NCBI GenBank assembly: GCA_964636235.1
Contig: CAZWQV010000004.1
Location: forward strand, 3,257 to 67,256
Direction: 5' to 3'
Origin: an uncultured Thermoplasmatales archaeon
GTDB taxonomy: Archaea > Thermoplasmatota > E2 > DHVEG-1
DNA: 64,000 nt
The notes beneath the pieces are model-generated. The model ran no database searches, was not told where the DNA came from, and saw nothing but the letters and a program-made list of their open reading frames with translations. Below, piece by piece: positions 12,823 through 27,697 of this stretch. The number at the start of each line of letters is the position of its first letter. Positions within the stretch are counted from its first letter, which is position 1. The position numbers and the translations under genes are program-made.

Positions 12823-13383
12823 TTGATTGATACAATGGCCGCCTTTGGTGGTTTTATTATGGCAAAAAGAAGCAAAGAACAAGTAGAAAAGGACGAAAAG
12901 AAAGTTATTATTAAACTTCAATCACAAGCAAAAGAAAGTATTGATGTACTTGCTGATGAATGTGGTTTTTCTGGTCCAAAATTACGAAGAATTATCAGTA
13001 ATCTAGAAGAAAAAGGAATTATCTGGGGATACCACGCGGTAACAGATTTTGATAAAATTGACCTAAATGAATATATTTTATTAGTGAAAAAGACCAATAA
13101 ACCACTGGATGAACTAGCAGAAAAAATTATTAATAGAGATATTGAAAAATTATCTGAGAAAATGGGAATTATCATTGGTTCTAGTTACTACCTACATGGT
13201 ATTTTTGACTGGATCGTCTGTTTTGCAGCTGAAGATTTACGTCATGCAAAGAAGTTTGATAGTGAATTTTTAAAGTACTTTAAACCCTGGGTACAAGAAA
13301 CTCAACTGTTGGAAAATATTTTCCCAGTTAAACGAAGTGGCATTTCTAATCCAAATATTGAACGATTAAGAGAATTTATTTAA
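12823..13383 (+). CDS. Lrp/AsnC-family transcriptional regulator (HTH + RAM domain)
   Basis: N-terminal HTH (SQAKESIDVLADECGFSGPKLRRIISNLEEKGII) and a C-terminal RAM-like domain. Confidence 0.5.
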   Translation: MIDTMAAFGGFIMAKRSKEQVEKDEKKVIIKLQSQAKESIDVLADECGFSGPKLRRIISNLEEKGIIWGYHAVTDFDKIDLNEYILLVKKTNKPLDELAEKIINRDIEKLSEKMGIIIGSSYYLHGIFDWIVCFAAEDLRHAKKFDSEFLKYFKPWVQETQLLENIFPVKRSGISNPNIERLREFI

Positions 13384-13571
13384 TCTCTTTCTTCTTTTTT
13401 CATTGTAGTTTTTTGCGGAATTTCTTCTGGATTTGTTGTTGATGTTGGTGTTTTTTCTATTAGATTATGAAAGCATGGAAAGAATTTTTCGAGTGAATCC
13501 ATTCGTTGCAAAATGAATCCAATATCTGTTTCATTTATTTGTTTTTGATTTTTAGAATTTTGATCTTCCAT
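13380..13571 (-). CDS. Hypothetical small protein downstream of ttuA
   Basis: 63 aa ORF co-oriented with the upstream TtuA gene. No family match. Confidence 0.2.
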   Translation of the reverse strand: MEDQNSKNQKQINETDIGFILQRMDSLEKFFPCFHNLIEKTPTSTTNPEEIPQKTTMKKEERD

Positions 13572-13644
13572 GAGTATTATTTTACCATCAATAATACTTA
13601 TATCTTTTGTTTTTTTTTATTTAAGTTGCTTTTAAAAAACAACT

Positions 13645-14568
13645 TTATATCAATGATAATTGACTTTTTAAAATACAGGTTTTACAGAGCTGTTGTATAG
13701 TAGGTTCCTGGCATTTCTGACAAGCATGAAGGGAAGCGGCAGGATATTTTTCGATTAATAACTCTTTTATTGCATCATAACTTTTAATAATACTGTGTCT
13801 TGTACCAGGATTTCTTTCTTCAAGCTCATAAATAATCTCTTTGATATACTGTCGAGATGCTTCAACAGCGTATGGGCATTCTGCATCATGAACTTGGTAG
13901 CCTTGAATAAATGCATATAAAGCATTTTCTTTTTCAGGAATAACCCTTAATGGAATGATTCTTGGTACCAATCCAGGTTGTATTTTAATATGGGGTCCAA
14001 GACGAGCTAATTTTTCCATATCTGCATTTACAAAATTCATTAAAATAGATTGGGCCATATCATCTAAGTTATGGCCTGTGACTAAGCGCTGTAAAGAAAG
14101 TTCTTTTGATATCGTGTTTAAACAAAATCGACGAAAAACCCCGCAGTAACTGCAGGCACCAAGTTCTCTATGTGGCAGGTTCATGATCTCATCCATAGTT
14201 TTCCCAATTTTCTCTTTGAAGGAAATGATTTGATGACTGACATTTAATTTTTTACACTGGTCCTGGGCTATCCTGAGACTGTCATCCCGATAGCCTTTTA
14301 TCCCTTCGTCAATACTAATCCCGATAAGTTCTATATCTTTTCTTTGCCCATATAATTCAACCATGATATGCAATGCAACGATACTATCCTTGCCTCCAGA
14401 TATAGCAACACCGATTTTGCTATTTGAAGGAATATTGCCCTGCTTTCTTATTTCCTTTTTAACCCTTCTTTGATAATATAAGATAAAATGATCTTTACAT
14501 AGGTGAGTTCCATTATATCGAATAAACGTAATGGCAGGTTTTGAACATTTACTACAGATGGCAGACAT
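13645..14568 (-). CDS. ttuA: tRNA thiolation protein, TtuA/NcsA (TtcA) family PP-loop ATPase
   Basis: PP-loop SGGKDS, plus N- and C-terminal CxxC zinc fingers (CSKCSK...CKDH; CQKCQ...CKTC). Confidence 0.7.
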   Translation of the reverse strand: MSAICSKCSKPAITFIRYNGTHLCKDHFILYYQRRVKKEIRKQGNIPSNSKIGVAISGGKDSIVALHIMVELYGQRKDIELIGISIDEGIKGYRDDSLRIAQDQCKKLNVSHQIISFKEKIGKTMDEIMNLPHRELGACSYCGVFRRFCLNTISKELSLQRLVTGHNLDDMAQSILMNFVNADMEKLARLGPHIKIQPGLVPRIIPLRVIPEKENALYAFIQGYQVHDAECPYAVEASRQYIKEIIYELEERNPGTRHSIIKSYDAIKELLIEKYPAASLHACQKCQEPTIQQLCKTCILKSQLSLI

Positions 14569-14708
14569 AATCCCATGACATAAATCGATAAAACAAAAAC
14601 TTTGTTGTTACAAACATTTTTACGAAGGCAACATTTTTAGAATAGAAGAAGATATGTGTGAAAACAGTTCATACAAAAAATAAATGACTTTGATAGGGGA
14701 GATTTCTC

Positions 14709-16232
14709 ATGACGGTTATATTAAACGGATCTGGACTAACTATTGAAAAACTTGTAAAAATAGCTCGTTTTAAAGAAAAAGTTAAACTTGATGATCAAGC
14801 CATAAAAAGAATAATTAAATGTCGGAAACTAGTTGAAAAAAAGATAGCTGATAAAGAAATAATGTACGGAATCAATACAGGTATAGGAGAATTTTCCGAG
14901 ATTGTATTAAACGATGATCAGATTAAACAATTTCAAAAATATCTTATTTATAACCATGCAGCGGGTATTGGTGATCCAGCACCTATTGAATACATTCGTG
15001 GAGCGATGGCTGCTCGAATAAATGTACATGCACATGGTCAATCAGGAAATCGTATTGAAATCACCAAAACATTAGTAGAAATGTTGAATAAAGATGTCGT
15101 TCCATATGTTTGTCAAAAAGGAAGTGTGGGTGCTTGTGGCGATCTTGCACCTATGTCCCAGATAGCACTTTTACTGCTTGGTGAAGGAAAAGCGTATTAT
15201 GACGGTGAATTACTACCCGGAAAAAAAGCCATGGAGAAGGCGGGCATTATGATTCCCGGCCTTCATGCACGGGATGGTCTTGCAGTAATAAATGGATGTA
15301 ATGTATTAACAGCGATGAGTGCAATTTTTTTATATGATGCAAATCGATTTTTAAAACAGGCTGAAATCGCCGCTGCTATGAGTCTTGAAGCGTTAAAAGC
15401 GAATATGAAGCCATATACCCCAAAACTTCATGAGGCTCGAGGATTTCCAGGGGCTATTCGAAGTGCAAATGCTATCTGTAAATTAATAACAGGTGGAGAT
15501 TTACAGAAAGAAAAGATACAATGTAAGGTGCAGGATGCCTATAGCATGCGTTCTACTCCGCAAGTTATTGGTGCTGCTCATGATGGCATTCGATGGGCAA
15601 AAGAGCAAATAGAAATTGAACTAAATGGCGTAGGTGATAATCCTGTTTTTTTCCCGGAAGAGAAGTTACAATTATCTGGTGCTAATTTCCAAGGAACTCC
15701 AGTTGGTTTACCGATGGATATGGCAGGCACAGCGATTACCATGGTTTGTATATTAAGTGAAAGACGGATGAATCGGTTGAATAATCCAGCCTTAAATGTT
15801 GGATTGCCTGCCTTTTTAACTAAAGGGGCTGGAATGTTTTCAGGTTTAATGCTTAGCCAATATACTGCTGATCATCTTATTGTTGAACAAAAACTTCTCT
15901 CGTCACCTGCATCAATTCAGTCCATTCCGGCTGCTGCAGATCAAGAGGATTTTGTATCAATGGCTATGAATACTGCCATTAAAAATATGCAGATATTGGA
16001 AAATGCTTATGGAATATTAGGAATTGAATTTATGGCAGCAGCTCAAGCATTAGATTTTAGAGAGTATCATTTCGGCAAAGGTGTACATACCGCGAAAGAA
16101 ATTGTCAGGTCCTATGTAGATTTTCTTGATGAGGATCGTCCATTATATCCTGATCATACAAAAATGAGAGAACTTGTAAAATCATGCGAGATCCTAGAAG
16201 CCGTAGAGAAAAAAATCGGCCCATTAGAATGA
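14709..16232 (+). CDS. hutH: Histidine ammonia-lyase (MIO-dependent aromatic amino acid ammonia-lyase family)
   Basis: Collinear with HAL (GSVGAxGDLAP, NGCN, etc.). GGGGAG SD. 507 aa. The MIO triad reads Ala142-Cys143-Gly144. Confidence 0.8.
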   Translation: MTVILNGSGLTIEKLVKIARFKEKVKLDDQAIKRIIKCRKLVEKKIADKEIMYGINTGIGEFSEIVLNDDQIKQFQKYLIYNHAAGIGDPAPIEYIRGAMAARINVHAHGQSGNRIEITKTLVEMLNKDVVPYVCQKGSVGACGDLAPMSQIALLLLGEGKAYYDGELLPGKKAMEKAGIMIPGLHARDGLAVINGCNVLTAMSAIFLYDANRFLKQAEIAAAMSLEALKANMKPYTPKLHEARGFPGAIRSANAICKLITGGDLQKEKIQCKVQDAYSMRSTPQVIGAAHDGIRWAKEQIEIELNGVGDNPVFFPEEKLQLSGANFQGTPVGLPMDMAGTAITMVCILSERRMNRLNNPALNVGLPAFLTKGAGMFSGLMLSQYTADHLIVEQKLLSSPASIQSIPAAADQEDFVSMAMNTAIKNMQILENAYGILGIEFMAAAQALDFREYHFGKGVHTAKEIVRSYVDFLDEDRPLYPDHTKMRELVKSCEILEAVEKKIGPLE

Positions 16233-16240
16233 TACAATGT

Positions 16241-17887
16241 TTAAAGGATGCTTTTAAGAATTTCGATATTCATCTCGATTGCAATAATCGGATGTTCCAG
16301 TTCAAAATTGATGATTGTTTGTGGATGTAATTCACCAAAAAATCCAATTTCTTTCTCATGTACTTTCACTGATGCACAGCGTCCTTTTACAAATGCATTA
16401 TGATCTTTTTCAGTGATAATATATGGTTGGATGCCTAATTCCCTTAGAATGCCTTCAACATATGATTTACATTCTGTGAAATGTGATTTTGCACTTGTTT
16501 TTAAAACACCTAAATGGTATATATTCTTATATGTTTCATTAACTATGATGCCCACTTCGAAAATTTTTTGTGGTAAGGGATGATGTTTATTTTCTGCTAG
16601 TATTTTTAATAGAGAGGGAAGTAATGTGGTTCTGATACAAGAATAATCTTCACTTATAGGATTTTTCAGTTCGACTTTTTTTCCCGATTCTATACCAAGT
16701 TTATGATACTCATCTCTCTCATTTGTGATAGTAAAGGTAGTAACTTCATTGAATCCAAATCCTATCATAATCATTCGTAAATTATCAAAAAGATTCTGGT
16801 CTGGAAGATGTTTTCCAAAGGTAAATACTCTAGGTAGTTTTCTATTGAATTGTTCAAAACCATATCCTATTGCAACATCTTCAACTAAGTCAATTTCGTG
16901 TAGTATATCTGATCGCCAAGCAGGAATGGAAATTGAGAGTGTTTTATCATCTTTAATTTCACAATTATATCCCATTTTTTCAAGGGATTGAATAATTTGA
17001 TCAGAACTAAATTTTGGCCCAAGGATTTTTCGGACATAATCTAAGGTAAGAGTTCTTTTTTGAGGAGATAGGTTTGGTGAAATAATTGTTTCATTTCCAT
17101 CTTTTATAGTTGTTGAATATATTGTGCCGCCACGCTCTGCAAGAGCAGTTGTAACAATATTTAGCGCGACATTAACCGCTTTCACATCCGAGCCGGTAAC
17201 ATCAATGAATAAATCCTTTGTATAAGGAGTTACCTCTGTGAGAATACCATTAATTATCGGTGGAAACGATAGTACATTATTATATGCATCTGTAATTAAT
17301 GGATAAGTGTCGTAATCTTTTAAAAGATGTGCATATGCAATTCCTTTTTCATGTTTTTCTAAGATTTCTTGTAAATCCATTGAATCAACTTTTGCTAATG
17401 GTACAAATTGATGGGATCTTGGATCAACTGCTTTATAAATAAATGGTGATTGCACTGGTTCATAATTGTGAACCCCGATAGCTACTTTTTTTCTATTTCT
17501 TCCGATACCAAAATGAAGCTTTTCTTGAAGATCCATTAAAGATGCGATTAATTCATCGCTCATCGTGACATTTTTCACCATTGCGCATCGAATGACTGGT
17601 CGAACTTTTTTTACTGAAGGATCAACATCAATAATAATATCTGATTGATTTATAGGATATGTCGTTAAACCAGTCATATAGGAAAAAAATGCTCTTGACG
17701 CTCTTACTATCCCTTCAACAGATAGAAGATCTGGTCTGTCTGGAAAAAACTCTATACTAATCGTATTATCTTCAACCTTATCTAAATCAGCACCGATCAT
17801 TGGAAGTTTTTCCAGGAACTTTTCTTTTGATAATGGTTGTTTGAGCAATTGAATAAAATCATTGAAATCAAATGTTACTAATGGCAT
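16241..17887 (-). CDS. pheT: Phenylalanine--tRNA ligase beta subunit, archaeal type
   Basis: N-terminal MPLVTFDFNDF...FFPDRPDLLS, typical of archaeal PheT. About 548 aa. Confidence 0.8.
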   Translation of the reverse strand: MPLVTFDFNDFIQLLKQPLSKEKFLEKLPMIGADLDKVEDNTISIEFFPDRPDLLSVEGIVRASRAFFSYMTGLTTYPINQSDIIIDVDPSVKKVRPVIRCAMVKNVTMSDELIASLMDLQEKLHFGIGRNRKKVAIGVHNYEPVQSPFIYKAVDPRSHQFVPLAKVDSMDLQEILEKHEKGIAYAHLLKDYDTYPLITDAYNNVLSFPPIINGILTEVTPYTKDLFIDVTGSDVKAVNVALNIVTTALAERGGTIYSTTIKDGNETIISPNLSPQKRTLTLDYVRKILGPKFSSDQIIQSLEKMGYNCEIKDDKTLSISIPAWRSDILHEIDLVEDVAIGYGFEQFNRKLPRVFTFGKHLPDQNLFDNLRMIMIGFGFNEVTTFTITNERDEYHKLGIESGKKVELKNPISEDYSCIRTTLLPSLLKILAENKHHPLPQKIFEVGIIVNETYKNIYHLGVLKTSAKSHFTECKSYVEGILRELGIQPYIITEKDHNAFVKGRCASVKVHEKEIGFFGELHPQTIINFELEHPIIAIEMNIEILKSIL

Positions 17888-18182
17888 AATAGTCGTTGTG
17901 AATAAATTTGTAGTATATTTGATTTTGGACCGATCACTTTACTATCGTAATTCAAGTTTTTTTATTATTGAGGATAAAATGATTTTAGGATAAACCAAAG
18001 TTTAAAAAAATGGGTAAAGAATAAATAATATTATGTTATGGAATGATACGAGAGGTGCTCATTTCATTGGAAATATTTCCATATGGACATTAAATCTTAT
18101 AAAATATTTCATTATACTGATATTTACTTTCGAAGATTAATGATTATAAATTGTATGTTTACGATAGGAAGATTGTGATACA

Positions 18183-19385
18183 ATGGATTTGAAACAGGAA
18201 AGAATTACTACCTTACATCAGTTTAATGTCAATAAAAAAACATTATTTAAAACAGTTAGCGATTGTACTATAGAGCGTCCTGTATCTGTTGTTATGCCTA
18301 TGTTATATAGAGAAATAACAAGTGACGCTCTAATTAACATAAAAAAAGGATTAAATAAATGTACCTTCTTAAATGAGATAATTATTCCTTTAGCTGCACA
18401 AAATAATAAAGAATTCAACCATGTTAAAAAATTTTTCTCAGATTTACAAATCCCTCATTTAATCATGTGGTGTAATGGTCCAAAAATAGATCAACTCCTG
18501 TATGATTTACAAAATGAGGGTATTAATCTTCAAAAATATAGGGGAAAAGGAAGAGATGTTTGGCTTGCATTGGGAATTGCTGCATTACGTTCATATGCTG
18601 TCGCATTGCACGATGCAGATATTATGTTATATGATGAAACGATTCCAGCCAAATTAGTTTATCCCCTTGTTGAACCTGAGTTAGAATTCAAATTTAATAA
18701 AGGATATTATGCTCGAGTAAATACGGAAAAGGGAATTATGTATGGTCGAGTTGTTCGGTTATTTTTATATCCCTTACTTGAAGCATTTGTAACAAAACAA
18801 CAATGTCAATTACATTTTGTTGAATTTTTACAATCATTTCGATATCCATTATCCGGAGAGTTTGCCTTAACAAGTGACCTGGCTCGAGATGTTGATATTC
18901 CTGGAAATTGGGGTCTTGAGATTGGTATCATGGCAGAAATGTTTCGAAATGTCATTACAAAACGAATATGTCAGACGGATTTAGGCTTTTATGATCATAA
19001 ACATCAGTCAATTGGCAATGAAGACCAAGGTCTGGTTAAAATGGCAGGTGATATCCTTGAAACTCTTTTACGGGTTCTCATTGAAGAAGATCAAGTTGAA
19101 ATATCATCTGAGTATCTTATTGCAATAAGAGTGCTCTATCAACGATTTGCACAGGATTATATTAGAAAATATCATGCTGATGCTCATTTCAATAATCTCA
19201 ATTATGATCGACATATTGAGGAGCAAATGGTAGAAGAATTCAGTAAGCAAATCGTTATTTCAGGTGAACATTATTTGAAAAATCCTGTTGGAGCACGAAT
19301 CCCTGATTGGCTTCGAACGATATCAGCCCGAAAAAAAATACGAGAACAATTATTAGATATTGTGATGATTGATAATGAAAAATAG
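18183..19385 (+). CDS. GT-A retaining glycosyltransferase, glucosyl-/mannosyl-3-phosphoglycerate synthase-like (GT81/GT55-like), paralog 1
   Basis: RGKGRDVWLALGIA resembles the GpgS GKGEALWRGL motif. Also a DAD (DxD) motif and PLSGEFALTSDL resembling GpgS PLSGEYAASRELL. Confidence 0.55.
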   Translation: MDLKQERITTLHQFNVNKKTLFKTVSDCTIERPVSVVMPMLYREITSDALINIKKGLNKCTFLNEIIIPLAAQNNKEFNHVKKFFSDLQIPHLIMWCNGPKIDQLLYDLQNEGINLQKYRGKGRDVWLALGIAALRSYAVALHDADIMLYDETIPAKLVYPLVEPELEFKFNKGYYARVNTEKGIMYGRVVRLFLYPLLEAFVTKQQCQLHFVEFLQSFRYPLSGEFALTSDLARDVDIPGNWGLEIGIMAEMFRNVITKRICQTDLGFYDHKHQSIGNEDQGLVKMAGDILETLLRVLIEEDQVEISSEYLIAIRVLYQRFAQDYIRKYHADAHFNNLNYDRHIEEQMVEEFSKQIVISGEHYLKNPVGARIPDWLRTISARKKIREQLLDIVMIDNEK

Positions 19386-19409
19386 TATGAGGAAAGGTGG
19401 GATGAAGAA

Positions 19410-20690
19410 ATGAATCAAGAATGGAATAAAGATGTATGTTTACAACAAGATACTGCAGAAAAAGCAAAACAGATGAGAGATATTGATATAATGGTTGGCG
19501 TCTTATGTAAAGATGTTGAAACCACCGTGTTGAATGTATTAAATGTTGTCAACGAAGGCTTATATAAATATTTTCCAGATTATAACATGGCGATAGTAGT
19601 ATCAAAAGCAAAATCAACAGATAATACTGATGGGGCGATTAATTTATTTCATCCTTATAGTAATATACAATTTCTGGTAGCAGATGATATCACTTCTGGT
19701 GGAAAAGGAGCGGGGGTTATGACTATCTTTGAAATAGCAAATCAAGCCAATGCAAAATGTGTATTGCTCATGGATGGTGATTTACTTAGTATTAAACCAG
19801 AATGGATTCAAATGATGGCAAATCCAATTGTCTATGGGCGATCTGATCTTACAGTCCCTTATTATATTAGAGATAAAAACGATGGAGTGATTACCAATAA
19901 TCTGGTATATCCATTTACTCGAACACTTTATGGGGTAGATATTAGACAGCCTATTGCAGGTGAATTTGCATTATCTAAAAATCTTTATGAACTACTGAGA
20001 AATCATCCATTGTTTCCTCCTGATTTCGGTATTGATATTTTTATTGTGACCTGTGCAGCTGCTGAAGGTTTTTATGTAAAAGAAGGACTTTTTTCATTAA
20101 AAATCCATGAATCCACTATGCACTATCTGAAACCTGAAAAATTTTTAATACCTATGTTTCGCAAAGTTACGAAAAGCATGTTTGAACTTGCAAAATATTA
20201 TGAAGCATATTGGAAAAAAAAGCCAAATCGATGGTTTTCCAAACATCCACGTGATAATTTCAGTAAACAACCAATTCCCGTCAAGGTAAACATCTATGAA
20301 ATGCATAATTCATTCAATAATGAATATCTAGCTTCAAAAGAGGTCATGAATCGATTTTTACCTAATGAGATCATGGATTTGGTTGAAAATGTTGTTCATC
20401 ATGATGCGGATTTTAATGCTGAATTATGGACAAAAGTCGTGTTTCATTATGCTGCATCATACCGAAATTTAACGAATGATGCTGAAATTTATTCACTATT
20501 GGATACCTTGAAAACATTATGGCTTGGCCGATTTGTCAGTTATGCAAAACAAGTGGAACATATGGATATTAGTCAAGCGGAAAAAGTTATTCAATCTCAA
20601 GCTGATGTCTTTGAGAATAATTTTGAGTATTTAAAAAATATATATGCTGATGAATCTCAACTTACTATGCTAGATTCGAACAATGAGTAA
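19410..20690 (+). CDS. GT-A retaining glycosyltransferase, GpgS-like (GT81-like), paralog 2
   Basis: SGGKGAGV, a DGD motif, and PIAGEFALSKNL. Paralogous to the upstream gene. GGTGG SD. Confidence 0.5.
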   Translation: MNQEWNKDVCLQQDTAEKAKQMRDIDIMVGVLCKDVETTVLNVLNVVNEGLYKYFPDYNMAIVVSKAKSTDNTDGAINLFHPYSNIQFLVADDITSGGKGAGVMTIFEIANQANAKCVLLMDGDLLSIKPEWIQMMANPIVYGRSDLTVPYYIRDKNDGVITNNLVYPFTRTLYGVDIRQPIAGEFALSKNLYELLRNHPLFPPDFGIDIFIVTCAAAEGFYVKEGLFSLKIHESTMHYLKPEKFLIPMFRKVTKSMFELAKYYEAYWKKKPNRWFSKHPRDNFSKQPIPVKVNIYEMHNSFNNEYLASKEVMNRFLPNEIMDLVENVVHHDADFNAELWTKVVFHYAASYRNLTNDAEIYSLLDTLKTLWLGRFVSYAKQVEHMDISQAEKVIQSQADVFENNFEYLKNIYADESQLTMLDSNNE

Positions 20691-20702
20691 CGTAGGATTA
20701 AT

Positions 20703-21320
20703 ATGAAGATTTATGCCGCTGCGGATATTCATGGAGCTCAGTTCCGAGTTAATGAAATGATAGATGCCATAACTGCCAATAAACCGGATATTACTGTAAT
20801 TTGTGGTGATATCACCCAGTTTGGCCCGGGGGATATGGCATATTATATTCTTAATCAACTACCAGAACCCATCCTTGTTGTGCCTGGAAATATTGATACC
20901 GAAGATGTAAACCAAGGAATACAACGCAGCAAGGCAATTAATATTCAATTTCAAAGATATGACTTAAAAGGTATTTCGTTTTTAGGTTTGAACGGAGTAT
21001 CGGAACGACAAACAAATGCTTTTTATGATTATGAAGATAATAAAAAATTATTTTCTCATTTGGATGTCCTGGTCACTCATGTTCCCCCATATGGTTTTCA
21101 AGATACTATCTTTCTTGGAAAACATGGGGGAAGTAAAGCATTGCTTACAATTATAAATGAGATCCACCCGAGATTAGTTCTCTGTGGCCATATTCATGAA
21201 AATCCAGGATTCATGAAAAAGAATGATCTTACGGTTATTAATTGCAGTATGGGTAAAAGAGGTAAGGGTGCTATTGTGACCATAGAAAAAGATGATATAT
21301 CTGTTGAGATGATTAGTTAG
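20703..21320 (+). CDS. Metallophosphoesterase (calcineurin-like, YfcE/MJ0936-like)
   Basis: Motifs DIHG, GDITQ, GNID, THVPP, GHIHE. 12 nt after the preceding GT gene, so probably the same operon. Confidence 0.7.
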
Positions 21321-23004
21321 CTTTTTTGGTTTGTTGTTGAATCTTTTTCCAAGTATCTTTTAATGATACTGTTCGATTGATGATGAGATGGGTGGCTGTC
21401 GAGTCAGGGTCAATACAGAAATATCCTTTCCGTTCGAATTGAAATCGGTCAAATGCTTGTAATGATTTGATTGCTGGCTCTACTTTACAATTTTTTAGAA
21501 TTTTTAATGATTCTGGGTTTAAAAATGTTTTAAAGTCTTTTTGTTTATCCGCAGTTGGTTCAGGCACTGTAAATAACCGATCGTATAATCTAATTTCAGC
21601 ATCACAAGCATGGGCAGCTGAAACCCAATGAATGGTTGCTTTGACTTTTCGACCATCCGGTGCATATCCCCCTTTCGTTTCAGGATCAATGGTACAATGA
21701 AGTTCGGTTATTTTATCTTCAGTTTTTTTAACATCATTGCAGGTGAGATAATATGCATAACGTAACCTAATTTCTCTCCCAGGGGCTAGTCGATAGAATT
21801 TTTTAGGGGGATTTTCCATAAAGTCTTCTTGGTCGATGAAAATTTCTTTTGAAAATGGGATATTGCGTGTTCCCGCATTCGTATCTTCTGGATTATTTAT
21901 TGCCTCTAATTCTTCAAAACCAGCCTCTTCATAATTATCAATAATCACTTTTAATGGGTGAAGAACTCCCATAAAGCGAGATGCTGTTTTATTAAGATCT
22001 TCTCTAACACAATGTTCAAGAAAATCAATATCAATAGTACTATTAACTTTTGCAACCCCAATTCGTTTGGAAAAATTTCGTATTGATGATGGGGAATATC
22101 CTCTTCTTTTCATTCCACTTATAGTTGGCATTCGGGGGTCATCCCAACCATTGACATAACTACCATCAACCAATTCTTTTAACATTCTTTTACTCATAAT
22201 AGTAAACGACAGATTCAACCTTGCAAATTCAATTTGTTGCGGATGGTAAACTTCTAATTGATCAAGAAACCAATCGTATAAGGGTCGATGATTTTCAAAT
22301 TCTAAGGTACAGATAGAATGTGTTATTTTCTCAATCGAGTCTTCTAAACCATGAGCCCAATCATACATTGGATAAATACACCATGAATCCTTAGTGTTAT
22401 GATGAGACTCATGAAGAATTCTATAAATGATTGGATCTCTCATATTAATATTAGGATGAGCCATATCGATTTTAGCTCTAAGTACTTTCTCACCATTTTC
22501 AAATTCCCCCTGTTTCATCCGTACAAAAAGATCTAGATTTTCTTCAATTGAACGATTTCTATAGGGGCTGTTTATACCTGGTTGAGTAAGACTTCCCCTT
22601 GTTTTACTTATTTCATCTGGTTGTTGATCATCAACATAGGCTTTACCTTTTTTAATTAAATCAATAGCATAGGTGTACATCTGATTAAAATAATCTGAAG
22701 CAAAATAGAGTCTATCCCCCCAATCAAATCCTAGCCATCTTACGTCATTAATAATTGATTGAACGTATTCATCTGTTTCCTTCACGGGGTTTGTGTCATC
22801 AAACCGAAGATTACAGAAACCATTATAATCTTCTGCAATACCAAAATTCAAACAGATTGATTTTGCATGACCGATATGCAAATAACCATTTGGTTCAGGA
22901 GGAAATCTCGTATGAACTCTCCGATTATATTTATTTGTTTTAATGTCTTCATCAATGATATCACGAATGAAATCTTTTTGTTTTTCTGAATCATCCATAC
23001 TCAA
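21313..23004 (-). CDS. glnS: Glutamine--tRNA ligase (bacterial/eukaryotic-type GlnRS)
   Basis: Long collinear stretches match E. coli GlnRS as I recall it: [57 protein letters not shown], and the C-terminal anticodon-binding barrels. HIGH and MSK class I motifs are present. Confidence 0.85.
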
Positions 23005-23437
23005 TCACCATATAATTTCTCACATTTTTTAAATGGTTTAAATGATAAAGTTGTAGAATCATGGTACAACTTTAATAATTAACATTTCGTAATGAAAAAT
23101 GCAACACATAAGGTTTTTGTTTGAAAAAGAGAATATTTCATCATTATTTAGAAAAAAATTGAAGGGAGGGGAAAAACTAAAAATGAGAATATATAGGGGA
23201 CAAATAAAATTCAACTATTGTTTTTCCCAGTTGCATATCCTTCGACCTTCTTCTCCCTTTATTATATATTTTGTTTCTTCTATTATTTAATATTTCTTGT
23301 TATTTTATAACACGATTATATAAAGGTTTTGCTTATCAATTAAATTGACAATATTTTGTTTAGAGTATTTTCAAAAAGCAAAGTATTTGATTACATCCAA
23401 TCGATAATGAACTATTAATATTTTTTAATAAAAAGAA

Positions 23438-24778
23438 ATGATAAAAAAGAAATTGAGTATCTTAGATATTTTTATTAACTATTGTTACTTATTACTATAT
23501 AAAAAGGGGATAATCGTGAACGGTTTAAATAGAAAGAAAGCTTTTATTATTTTATTATTTACAATTTTTATTATTCCAAGTGTTCCAAGCTATGCCTCTG
23601 ATTCAGCTGATCAATCTTCATTAAGTACACATACTGTACTTGTTGAAGTGGCATCATCTCAGGGATGCTCTGGTTGTAGTAGTTGGAATGCGATAATTAA
23701 TAATGAATTTTTAAATGGCATTTATGATTTTGAATTTGTGGAAATGATTGTATATGATCATTTATGGGATGTATTGAATAATGTAACCTATGATTGGAAT
23801 GAAATGTTTGGAATATCAAGCTACCCCACATCAGTTTTTGATGGTGGATTTGATTTTCTTATAGGTAGTAATCCCACGAATTTACCTGAAGTTTTAGAAA
23901 ACAGTCAGAATAGAACAGTATCGGATATTGATGCGCAAATTCAAGTATTATGGTATCACCCTGCTACATTGAAAGTCAGTATCAACATTACCAACAATGA
24001 ACCTTATACATATGATGGTTCCATCCGTTCTCATATAGCAGAAATAGAATCTCGATATTCTACATCACAAGGCCATTTCTATCATAATGGTTTCCTGGAT
24101 TTTGCGTTTAATAAAAATATCTCTATTCCTCCCTATGGATCATATACTGATACAAAAAGTTGGGACGCAACGTTACATAAAGATGCCCATGGAGATTCAT
24201 TTGGTGATATTGAAAAAGATAATATCAAAGTTTACTTAACAGCTTTTGATAAGAATGGATTATGTGATGAGGTTGTTATCACTCAACCGGTCTACGCTCC
24301 TCAGTATGAAGAAATAAACCAATCTGTACATAATAGAGGATTTCCAATCCGTCATGCTGCTGATGGTGATTGGGGTGCTGCTCAGAATTTTACATCAACA
24401 CAGGATTCGCTAAGTAGTATGCAGATTTATCTTCGTAAATTTGGAACTCCTGAATTCAATTTAAGTATTGAATTACATGAAGATGCGATTACTGGACCAA
24501 TTGTGGAAACCTTTACATTTACGCCAAGTGAAATTCCCAGTTCTTGGAAATGGCTCTCATTAAATATGACCAATGATACAGTTGTGAATGGAAAAAAGTA
24601 TTTTATCACCATTCCACCAGCAACATCTGGAATATCTACCTCATTTGGTTATGAATGGGGTTATGCATTTGGAAACCAATACGACAACGGTGCATTCTGG
24701 TTCACTCGTGACGGAGGAAACTTATGGAGAGATCTTCCGACCATGTATGAATTTACCTTTAAAACTTTTAGATATTAA
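23438..24778 (+). CDS. Secreted hypothetical protein (signal peptide; CxxC pair near the N-terminus)
   Basis: 446 aa ORF. A more likely start is GTG at 23516 (AGGGG SD 6 nt upstream), which gives MNGLNRKKAFIILLFTIFIIPSVPSYA. No family recognised. Confidence 0.45.
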   Translation: MIKKKLSILDIFINYCYLLLYKKGIIVNGLNRKKAFIILLFTIFIIPSVPSYASDSADQSSLSTHTVLVEVASSQGCSGCSSWNAIINNEFLNGIYDFEFVEMIVYDHLWDVLNNVTYDWNEMFGISSYPTSVFDGGFDFLIGSNPTNLPEVLENSQNRTVSDIDAQIQVLWYHPATLKVSINITNNEPYTYDGSIRSHIAEIESRYSTSQGHFYHNGFLDFAFNKNISIPPYGSYTDTKSWDATLHKDAHGDSFGDIEKDNIKVYLTAFDKNGLCDEVVITQPVYAPQYEEINQSVHNRGFPIRHAADGDWGAAQNFTSTQDSLSSMQIYLRKFGTPEFNLSIELHEDAITGPIVETFTFTPSEIPSSWKWLSLNMTNDTVVNGKKYFITIPPATSGISTSFGYEWGYAFGNQYDNGAFWFTRDGGNLWRDLPTMYEFTFKTFRY

Positions 24779-24785
24779 AAAAAAA

Positions 24786-24857
24786 CAGCCCTGACCAGAT
24801 TTGAACTGGTGTCTAGAGATCCAGAGTCTCTGATGCTAACCACTACACCACAGGGCC
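24786..24857 (-). tRNA. tRNA-Gln (anticodon CUG)
   Basis: Manual cloverleaf: acceptor GGCCCTG/CAGGGCT, D-arm with GG, anticodon stem AGAGA/TCTCT, loop CTCTGGA (U33, CUG), T-arm ACCAG-TTCAAAT-CTGGT, discriminator G. No encoded CCA. A T-tract follows. Confidence 0.75.
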
Positions 24858-24878
24858 AATTTTTTATATCTTTTGACA

Positions 24879-24892
24879 TTTATTTTTAATGA
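24879..24892 (-). promoter_or_regulatory. Putative BRE/TATA promoter element for tRNA-Gln
   Basis: Minus strand TTAAAAATAAATG is centred about 28 nt upstream of the tRNA 5' end. Archaeal TATA-like. Confidence 0.3.
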
Positions 24893-24899
24893 ATACAGA

Positions 24900-25991
24900 C
24901 TATTTTTCAAGGAAAATCGTTTGAGTTGGAAATGCCATCTCAATTCCTTCCTTTTCAAACGCTGCTTTCATATCAAGGTTAATCTGCTGTTGAATATCCA
25001 TATATTTTGCGTAATCTTGACTATTGATATAATAGACGATTTCAAATTTAAGACTGAAATCACCAAATTCTTTAAAATGTATCCGGTCAACTTTTGTAAG
25101 TTCGATATTTTCTATTATTTTTCTTACCATCTCGGGTATCTTCTTTAGTTTTTCAGAAGGTGTTCCGTATACAACACCAAAACCGAAACTAATTCGTCTT
25201 TTTCTCATTTTTTTGAAATTCCGAACATTTGTTGTAGTCAAAACGGAATTAGCTAAAACCAGTTCTTCACCCTGTAATAATTGAACCCGGGTCGATTTCA
25301 TACCAATTTTTTTTACAGTTCCAGAATAATCTCCGACAACAATGAAATCTCCTATTTCAAACGGTTTATCAAAATAGATAGAAAAAGCGCTAAATAGATC
25401 ACTTAAAACATTTTGTAAGGCAAATGCAATTGCAATCCCGCCAACTCCAAATCCGACAACTATTCCAGATAAATTAACATTGAATATATATAAAATTACA
25501 AAAAATGCGATTAGATAGATAAAGGCATTTATAATTTTCTTTAGAACAAATAAGATATGTTCACTCATACTTTTTTTTGCACTTTTTTTAGAATACCATG
25601 CAAAAAGAACATTAACAACTCTCGTAATAACAAATGTAATCAGTAAAATTTCAGCAATGGTAAATATTATTCGAATGTATTCTTGATAATTATTAAGTAT
25701 TTCAAAGGCACTTATTCCAAAATAAATACCGACTAAAATAACAAAAAAATAAATCGGTTTTTTGATGTTTTTTAATATTTCATCATCCAGTGTGGTTTTT
25801 GTTTTTTCTGCCCATCTACAAAAATATCGTTCGAAGATATGATAGACAATCCATCCTAGTATAATAAATGATACAAAAATACTAATCGCAGTTATAGATT
25901 GAATTATTATGGGGTCCGCATTTATACCAATACTTCTGAAAAAAGATTCAACGATTTCTAATGTATTTGTACTAATATTCATATGAATCAT
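24900..25991 (-). CDS. Small-conductance mechanosensitive channel (MscS family)
   Basis: N-terminal TM helices plus the MscS beta-domain signature ...GTVKKIGMKSTRVQLLQGEELVLANSVLTTTNVRNF. Confidence 0.75.
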   Translation of the reverse strand: MIHMNISTNTLEIVESFFRSIGINADPIIIQSITAISIFVSFIILGWIVYHIFERYFCRWAEKTKTTLDDEILKNIKKPIYFFVILVGIYFGISAFEILNNYQEYIRIIFTIAEILLITFVITRVVNVLFAWYSKKSAKKSMSEHILFVLKKIINAFIYLIAFFVILYIFNVNLSGIVVGFGVGGIAIAFALQNVLSDLFSAFSIYFDKPFEIGDFIVVGDYSGTVKKIGMKSTRVQLLQGEELVLANSVLTTTNVRNFKKMRKRRISFGFGVVYGTPSEKLKKIPEMVRKIIENIELTKVDRIHFKEFGDFSLKFEIVYYINSQDYAKYMDIQQQINLDMKAAFEKEGIEMAFPTQTIFLEK

Positions 25992-26050: not shown

Positions 26051-27697
26051 TTATAACATAGGCATATGTAGATCTGATTTTTTCACTACATCAATAGCTT
26101 CTTTATATCCTGCATCCGCATGTCTAATAACACCTATTCCAGGGTCTGTCTTAAATACTCTTTTTATACGTTCATCTGTTTCTTTCGTTCCATCACAAAC
26201 TACTACCATCCCTGCATGAGTAGACAGGCCAATACCAACTCCTCCACCATTGTGGATTTGGACATTATCAGCGCCTGCTGCACAATTTAATAAGGCATTT
26301 AATAACGGCCAATCAGCAATAGTATCGCTTCCATCCTTCATCCGTTCGGTTTCTCTATAGGGGGATGCAACACTGCCAGTATCTAAATGATCCCTTGTAA
26401 TAGCAATTGGGCCAATTTCACCATGCCTAATCAATTTATTAATTCCAAGCGCAAATTTTTCTCGTTCCTCATATCCAAGCCAACAAACTCGTGCAGGCAG
26501 CCCCTCCCATGGAAGATGTTTTTCGGCCAAATTAATCCAATTTGATAAAATAGTATCCATTGGAAACATATTCATTACTAGTCTATCTGTTTTCAGGATA
26601 TCCTCTGGATTTCCAGTTAATGAAAGCCATCTAAAAGGTCCGCGCCCGACACAAAGCATGGGGCGTACATAAGCGGGAACAAAACCGGGGTAATTAAAAG
26701 CATTTTTAAGTCCTGCTTTTTGTGCTTGGCCTCTTAAATTATTACCATAATCAAATACAATACTTCCCTTTTTCTGAAAATCAATCATTGCTTGACAGTG
26801 GATTTTCATACTTTTCAGTGATTCTTTCTTATATGCTTTTGGATCAGATGTACGTAATGCTATTGCTTTATCAAGACTATTGCCATAATATCCTGCAGGA
26901 ACATAACCGTTTAGTTCGTCATGAGCAGAGGTTTGATCAGTTACAATATCAGGCTGGAATCCTTCCTTAACCAATTGTGGAAGCACATCTGCACAATTTC
27001 CTAACAGTCCAATTGCTATTGCATTTCCACGTTGTTTTTCTTTTTCAGCCATATCAATTGCTTCATGAATATCTGCTATCTTTTTATCACAAAATCCTGC
27101 TTTTATTCTCCTATCTATCCGTTTTTCATCACATTCAACATCGATACAAATACCACCGGCCATTTTCACTGCTAATGGTTGAGCACCTCCCATACCACCC
27201 ATACCACCAGTTAAAACAATTTTTCCTTTCAGGTTCTTATTAAAATGTTTTTTTGCTAGAGCTGAAAATGTCTCATATGTTCCTTGAATTATGCCCTGTG
27301 TTCCAATATAACACCATGAACCTGCAGTCATCTGACCGTACATAGTTAGCCCTAATTTTTCCAGCTCATTAAACTTATCCCAATTACTCCAATGAGGAAC
27401 AATATTTGCATTTGCCATTAGTACTCTTGGCGAATTTTCCCACGTTCTAAAAACACCAACTGGCTTGCCTGATTGAATAATAAGCGTTTCATCATTTTCT
27501 AATGACTGTAATGTTTGAACAATTTTATCATAACATTTCCAATTTCTTGCTGCCTTTCCCGTTCCACCATATATAATTAAATCTTCTGGTAATTCAGCAT
27601 TTTCTAGATTATTTTCAAGCATTCGAAGAATCGCTTCTTGTTTCCAACCTTTACAGCGTAATGTTGTTCCTCTTGCAGCTTTTATTTGTTTCCCCAT
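26051..27697 (-). CDS. hutU: Urocanate hydratase
   Basis: 548 aa. Urocanase N-terminus (RGTTLRCKGWKQEA...) and a GGMGGMGGAQP NAD-binding glycine-rich loop. Confidence 0.8.
   Translation of the reverse strand: MGKQIKAARGTTLRCKGWKQEAILRMLENNLENAELPEDLIIYGGTGKAARNWKCYDKIVQTLQSLENDETLIIQSGKPVGVFRTWENSPRVLMANANIVPHWSNWDKFNELEKLGLTMYGQMTAGSWCYIGTQGIIQGTYETFSALAKKHFNKNLKGKIVLTGGMGGMGGAQPLAVKMAGGICIDVECDEKRIDRRIKAGFCDKKIADIHEAIDMAEKEKQRGNAIAIGLLGNCADVLPQLVKEGFQPDIVTDQTSAHDELNGYVPAGYYGNSLDKAIALRTSDPKAYKKESLKSMKIHCQAMIDFQKKGSIVFDYGNNLRGQAQKAGLKNAFNYPGFVPAYVRPMLCVGRGPFRWLSLTGNPEDILKTDRLVMNMFPMDTILSNWINLAEKHLPWEGLPARVCWLGYEEREKFALGINKLIRHGEIGPIAITRDHLDTGSVASPYRETERMKDGSDTIADWPLLNALLNCAAGADNVQIHNGGGVGIGLSTHAGMVVVCDGTKETDERIKRVFKTDPGIGVIRHADAGYKEAIDVVKKSDLHMPML

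Follow-up and report, generated by a model that had tools for sequence, protein, structure and literature searches.

The MIO-dependent histidine ammonia-lyases (HAL) are well known as a kind, and so is, from mutagenesis, the tolerance of their cofactor-forming triad for cysteine. Among the known systems closest to the gene studied here is HutH of Pseudomonas putida (PpHAL; 1B8F, 1GKM). Langer, Lieber and Retey (Biochemistry 1994) are said to have found that its engineered S143C variant matures into fully active enzyme. Among natural enzymes, the Ser in the middle of the MIO triad is presented in reviews as strictly conserved, with variation given for the first position only (PMC3903478, PMC9002059). 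The Thr/Ser/Cys-Ser-Gly enzymes (PMC9002059; AdmH/PaPAM 3UNV) are natural triad variants of this sort that still give MIO: they differ in the first residue, with the central Ser unchanged. The family also contains MIO-less lyases of the ergothionase type, which act on trimethylammonium betaines and have lost the triad (GSVGY---L), so that the ergothionase of Treponema denticola (6S7J) illustrates how the triad can change. A natural Ala-Cys-Gly triad is another matter: our literature search found no paper linking Ala-Cys-Gly or ACG to MIO or to an ammonia-lyase.

Here, we analyse such a triad in a gene carried by a 64,000-nucleotide stretch of DNA (hereafter, the window) from an uncultured Thermoplasmatales archaeon, whose genome is a 164-contig MAG. 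In contrast to the known natural variants, its product (P0001) changes the central residue, the one whose side chain is eliminated. What is new is that a large, very conserved and uncharacterised branch of the family, here called type-2, would naturally use cysteine as its main precursor, in this case for an archaeal Hut pathway; the cysteine of PpHAL was engineered, whereas that of type-2 occurs in nature and is the prevailing residue of the branch as a whole. No solved structure of the branch is among the PDB matches, of which the best is ~35-40% identical to P0001. The best sequence match among solved structures (8.5e-95) is the HAL of Thermoplasma acidophilum (7TQR), archaeal and from the same phylum. 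It is, however, of the ordinary HAL type (SH pair, NFHG, QEDH), and the gene of the window groups with bacterial type-2 genes, not with the ordinary archaeal HALs.

The gene, its triad and its active site

The features on which the analysis rests are the following, with positions in the window.

14709..16232, plus strand: type-2 histidine ammonia-lyase gene (P0001, 507 aa, PF00221), from the ORF and its translation, profile matches and an AF2 model
15132..15140, plus strand: presumed MIO-forming triad Ala142-Cys143-Gly144 (GCT TGT GGC), from the sequence and its alignment to 1gkm
15135..15137, plus strand: Cys143 codon, TGT; orthologues have TGT or TGC, and the nearest relative (L023) has AGT (Ser)
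26051..27697, minus strand: hutU (urocanate hydratase), with Urocanase N, Rossmann-like and C-terminal domains; TIGR01228

The peptide around the triad is KGSVGACGDLAPM, a GSVG-ACG-DLAP frame in which the GSVG and DLAP flanks and the first and third triad residues are kept, and Ala-Cys-Gly stands in place of the Ala-Ser-Gly of MIO-dependent lyases. The original prediction placed the MIO precursor at residue 143, and this is borne out by a HMMER alignment that puts Cys143 opposite Ser143 of the P. putida enzyme (1gkm), the two proteins sharing their numbering up to residue 215. The reading frame is unbroken and of full length, with a conserved start, and the protein matches PF00221 from end to end (1.1e-157, profile positions 1-465 of 466). 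The AF2 model (pLDDT 95) has the HAL fold (1b8f, 1eb4 and 1gkj at TM 0.93-0.95, rmsd 1.7-2.4). There are no Rfam matches around the gene (13000-18500), and the sole tRNA gene of the window is a tRNA-Gln (24785-24858).

P0001 thus resembles PpHAL in its fold (TM 0.94-0.95), its catalytic residues and its GSVG-x-x-G-DLAP frame. It differs in overall sequence (~35% identity), in having N82, Q328 and F415 where PpHAL has Ser, His and His, and in the Tyr-loop, which reads GIGEF (I59-G-E61-F62) in type-2 and GFG-L in PpHAL. The ergothionase has the same fold as well (TM 0.94), but the loss of the triad that defines ergothionase-type lyases does not apply to P0001, which keeps Ala-x-Gly.

The active site is intact throughout the branch. 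Y53, H83, A142, G144, F327 and E413 are identical in 100/100 type-2 orthologues, and N195, Q275, Y278 and R281 in 99/100, the remaining row having a gap or X; D145 is invariant in a 47-sequence alignment. The PpHAL counterparts are Y53, H83, N195, Q277, Y280, R283, F329 and E414. All the residues that support cyclisation or hold the MIO (D145, N195, Y280 and F329 in PpHAL) are therefore kept, and the catalytic Tyr53 and the HAL-type substrate residues (His83, Glu414 in PpHAL) are present in every orthologue. We take H83 and E413 to be the residues that set HAL apart from TAL and PAL. With the triad frame and all MIO-supporting residues retained, we rejected an identity as MIO-less lyase.

Our preferred reading, to which we give a probability of about 75%, is that P0001 is a working histidine ammonia-lyase whose MIO forms from Ala-Cys-Gly, with H2S lost where the serine enzymes lose water. 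The Gly144 amide would attack the Ala142 carbonyl in an autocatalytic cyclisation, with the loss of one water, and the Cys143 side chain would then undergo beta-elimination of H2S, not water, to give the same exocyclic methylidene (methylidene-imidazolone). The mature enzyme would be chemically identical whether encoded with Cys or with Ser. It would carry out the usual HAL reaction on L-histidine, and the resulting urocanate would be fed into the archaeal Hut pathway (hutU, hutI and glutamate formimidoyltransferase).

The type-2 branch and its probable place in histidine degradation

The original prediction described the gene as an otherwise canonical HAL, a description that has to be given up because P0001 falls under the hutH equivalog cut-off (TIGR01225, 507.6 bits for a cut-off of 539.15) and carries an invariant branch signature. 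It does pass the broader 'histidine ammonia-lyase' subfamily (NF006871, 534.5 bits for a cut-off of 524). In related genomes, PF00221 scores are bimodal, at ~620-680 bits for canonical Ala-Ser-Gly genes and ~516-539 bits for type-2. On a tree of PF00221 representatives, type-2 forms a well-supported clade (98), and other, separate lineages with Ala-Cys-Gly are found elsewhere (P0215; P0195 with P0202). Two deeper relatives (P0143, P0122) have stretches that look frameshifted or erroneous in the alignment, and their triad states need care. The signature consists of N82, Q328, F415, I59, E61 and C135. N82 replaces a Ser present in 133/139 other representatives, Q328 (in the motif NFQGTP) a His present in 135/139, and F415 the usual His, while I59 and E61 sit in the Tyr-loop. 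NFQGTP is the form seen in plant PAL. The differences at N82, Q328, F415 and the Tyr-loop count against our preferred reading to the extent that substrate range or kinetics may differ.

The branch is widespread and very conserved. A scan for relatives, with one genome per species, gave at least 590 stretches, from which 80 loci were kept, all 75-82% identical to P0001. Among the matches listed, carriers are found in Thermoplasmatota, Bacteroidota, Zixibacteria, Ignavibacteriota, Bacillota, Lentisphaerota, Fidelibacterota, Bdellovibrionota, Delongbacteria, Myxococcota and one Aminicenantes MAG, i.e., besides the archaeal phylum, in at least ten bacterial ones, as read from MAG names that are perhaps unreliable in some cases. 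Pairwise identity between 100 type-2 proteins has a median of 79% and a minimum of 71%. Archaeal and bacterial proteins are 76-78% identical, which is nearly the value within a genus (83-84%), and the hutU products of the same archaea and bacteria are only 53-59% identical. We considered recent horizontal transfer as the cause of this likeness across phyla and rejected it: third codon positions are only 32-51% identical, i.e., saturated even within the genus, for proteins that are 76-84% identical. High identity with saturated synonymous sites points to unusually strong constraint, not to recent transfer. On the tree, most of the sequences from Thermoplasmatota fall into a single clade (95) surrounded by bacterial sequences and, among 40 relatives, type-2 is confined to the window's own family. 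Hence, a single old acquisition by this archaeal family is likely.

The genomic context associates type-2 genes with the Hut pathway. In the window, the gene of the next enzyme, hutU (TIGR01228, 881 bits for a cut-off of 375), stands in convergent orientation to the HAL gene, at a distance of 9.8 kb. The interval between them (16241-25991) holds pheT, two GpgS-like genes, a metallophosphoesterase, GlnRS, a 446-aa ORF, the tRNA-Gln and MscS. The two genes are 7-15 kb apart in the window's genus and immediate convergent neighbours in sister genera, and an insertion seems to have driven the pair apart in the former. In six sister genera (G012, G013, G014, G016, G019, G024), the Ala-Cys-Gly gene is the sole PF00221 match and lies tail-to-tail directly beside hutU; a further genome (G021) has the same adjacency on a contig-end fragment. 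Two of the sister-genus genomes with this adjacency are single contigs, and the type-2 protein of a closed chromosome (CP070724.1, L047) has exactly the same sequence as that of G019 (L030). The window's genome also encodes hutI (457 bits), with an FTCD_N formimidoyltransferase gene at a distance of 2.3 kb; together with hutU, these complete an anaerobic-type route from histidine to glutamate. All 40 sampled bacterial type-2 genomes have a hutU match, 37 of them above the family cut-off. In 26 of the 40, type-2 is the only PF00221 gene, although such absences are provisional because the genomes are MAGs. In one genome (that of L109; G075:C3:203291-204923), the hutU match is fragmented, with 6 TGA and 1 TAA inside, which probably reflects a pseudogene or a fault of the assembly.

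One genome fits the pathway less well, and this counts against our preferred reading. The closed genome G019 has its Ala-Cys-Gly gene beside hutU and no convincing hutI (best TIGR01224 match of 36.6 bits); its pathway may stop at imidazolone propionate, or may use another amidohydrolase.

Type-2 and canonical genes can also occur together. Several genomes of the window's genus (G001, G002, G006 and others) have a hutU-hutH operon of the canonical type plus a type-2 gene ~11 kb away and, in 14/80 loci among the matches listed, a canonical PF00221 gene directly precedes type-2 and is read in the same direction. In many Bacteroidota, the arrangement is hisS-(PF00221)-(thioredoxin)-type-2-SusC/SusD. 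Taken together, these arrangements hint that the two types of genes may not be fully redundant, which again counts against the preferred reading. The complete synteny in Bacteroidota reads GT1-GT1-(ABC-F/DUF6016)-hisS-(canonical PF00221)-(thioredoxin, on the opposite strand)-type-2 HAL-(147-aa ORF)-SusC-SusD (L051, L058, L059, L075, L081, L087, L101, L104, L113, L115 and other Bacteroidota). The gene most often found next to type-2 is that of histidyl-tRNA synthetase (23/79 loci, among the matches listed). We do not count the linkage with hisS as strong functional evidence, as it is mainly conserved synteny within Bacteroidota.

The assembly from which the window comes contains a canonical Ala-Ser-Gly hutH (L001; G000 contig C158, 1335-2624, plus strand; TIGR01225, 641 bits). 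It is truncated by the end of this 2.6-kb contig, is preceded by an unrelated 204-aa ORF instead of hutU, and shares only ~52% identity with the canonical hutH found in other genomes of the genus. This low identity and the lack of an adjacent hutU make it doubtful that the gene belongs to the window's organism: it may have been mis-binned or acquired separately.

These observations bear on the alternative that type-2 enzymes do form MIO and yet are not simply HutH, either because their substrate is a different one (a derivative of histidine or some other aromatic amino acid) or because they have a distinct housekeeping role, e.g., the trimming of free histidine in step with histidyl-tRNA charging. 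The score below the equivalog cut-off and the invariant N82, Q328, F415 and E61 are what one would expect of such enzymes, as are the canonical genes in tandem or in the same genus, and the extreme conservation over two domains of life. The position of the window's gene amid translation genes (TtuA, pheT, GlnRS) and the conserved hisS arrangement likewise speak for this alternative, but the hisS linkage is largely the synteny of one lineage and does not represent many independent events. Moreover, the HAL-specific substrate residues H83 and E413 are invariant, and several archaeal genera have type-2 beside hutU and no further family member; most of the hutU-carrying bacterial genomes likewise have type-2 alone. 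We thus regard this alternative as unlikely, though it deserves to be kept in mind.

Cysteine and serine at the centre of the triad

The cysteine is natural and, as the original prediction had proposed to check, shared by related archaea: the orthologue is present in 22/40 related genomes, 20 times with Cys (TGT or TGC) and twice with Ser (AGT). The motif GSVGACGDLAP is found in 113/120 database homologues (at least 80% identity), from many independent metagenomes, and GSVGASGDLAP in the other 7. Among the matches listed, 57/79 orthologues from genomes of other species have Cys (29 TGC, 28 TGT), and the remaining 22 have Ser (TCG 6, TCC 6, AGC 5, AGT 4, TCA 1). Overall, 76 of 100 type-2 orthologues have Cys at position 143 and the other 24 have Ser, whereas the triad centre of PF00221 representatives outside type-2 is Ser in 131/139 and Cys in 3/139. 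Cysteine is strongly enriched in type-2 relative to the rest of the family. The expectation that a natural cysteine is unusual consequently stands for the family at large and fails within the branch, where it is the majority state.

The cysteine persists although the surrounding DNA has changed. The codons that flank that of Cys143 show synonymous variation nearly everywhere among orthologues and, given the saturation of third codon positions, the retention of the residue indicates that it is maintained by selection. A few residues upstream, Ser139 of GSVGA (15123-15125) is encoded by AGT in some closely related archaeal orthologues and by TCA/TCT in others, a switch that needs two base changes, and no intermediate residue was seen.

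Within the branch, Cys and Ser replace one another repeatedly. We count at least 16 changes on the FastTree topology of 100 orthologues, an approximate number since many branches are weak. The window (Cys, TGT) and its nearest relative L023 (Ser, AGT) are a sister pair (96), as are L076 (Cys) and L090 (Ser) (100), and L074 (Cys) groups with L054 and L066 (Ser) (97). Orthologues use both Ser codon families (AGY and TCN), each one base away from TGY. The original prediction had seen TCT and TGT as the two ends of a single-base change; this route exists, but it is not the only one, as TGT and AGT are also one base apart and the nearest relatives use AGT. We looked for compensating substitutions that track the residue and rejected them: no column of the 100-orthologue alignment co-varies with the Cys/Ser state (best frequency difference 0.41). 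The original prediction had suggested that the cysteine could alter cofactor maturation or redox sensitivity. The swap without compensating changes argues for functional equivalence of the two residues. As far as comparison of sequences can tell, this is what one expects if the heteroatom of the side chain is discarded during cofactor formation; under our proposal, the interchange is free because the mature enzyme would be the same either way. Strict neutrality, in turn, leaves unexplained why Cys makes up 76% here and ~2% elsewhere, and this too counts against the preferred reading.

One way to account for this bias is that MIO maturation from Cys is gated by the redox state of the thiol, coupling activation to anoxia or sulfide chemistry. 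If so, type-2 would be a regulated and distinct partner of HutH, sometimes encoded in tandem with the canonical gene or next to hisS, and the excess of Cys over the rest of the family would be explained. We consider this idea speculative and rather improbable.

A more radical departure would be that Cys143 is not eliminated at all: the enzyme would lack MIO, or keep the thiol in a cyclised precursor with other chemistry, or use it as a redox switch on maturation. MIO-less relatives do exist (the GSVGY---L clade and the ergothionase, 6s7j), and carriers of type-2 appear to be mostly anaerobes, as deduced from organism names among the matches listed. Yet, the MIO-less lineages are without any triad, whereas type-2 conserves A142, G144, N195, Y278, F327 and D145. 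A catalytic or regulatory thiol would not yield to Ser some 16 times without any compensating change, and the engineered S143C enzyme reportedly matures normally. This makes retention of the thiol very unlikely. Finally, that TGT is a sequencing or assembly error, as the original prediction had allowed, or that the gene is decaying, has a practically negligible chance of being true: the source is indeed a MAG of 164 contigs, but ~190 independent sequences share the Cys with both of its codons in use, the frame and start are intact, and purifying selection on the protein is strong.

Implications for the MIO cofactor and the family

For annotation, the cysteine is no ground to flag type-2 genes as defective or MIO-less. 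The branch also raises questions of its own: what keeps its evolution so slow in archaea and in at least ten bacterial phyla, and what leads genomes to retain it so frequently beside a canonical HutH. It would offer a natural system in which to compare dehydration with H2S elimination in the maturation of the cofactor. With Cys as the usual residue of a large natural branch, the MIO cofactor would have two natural precursors.
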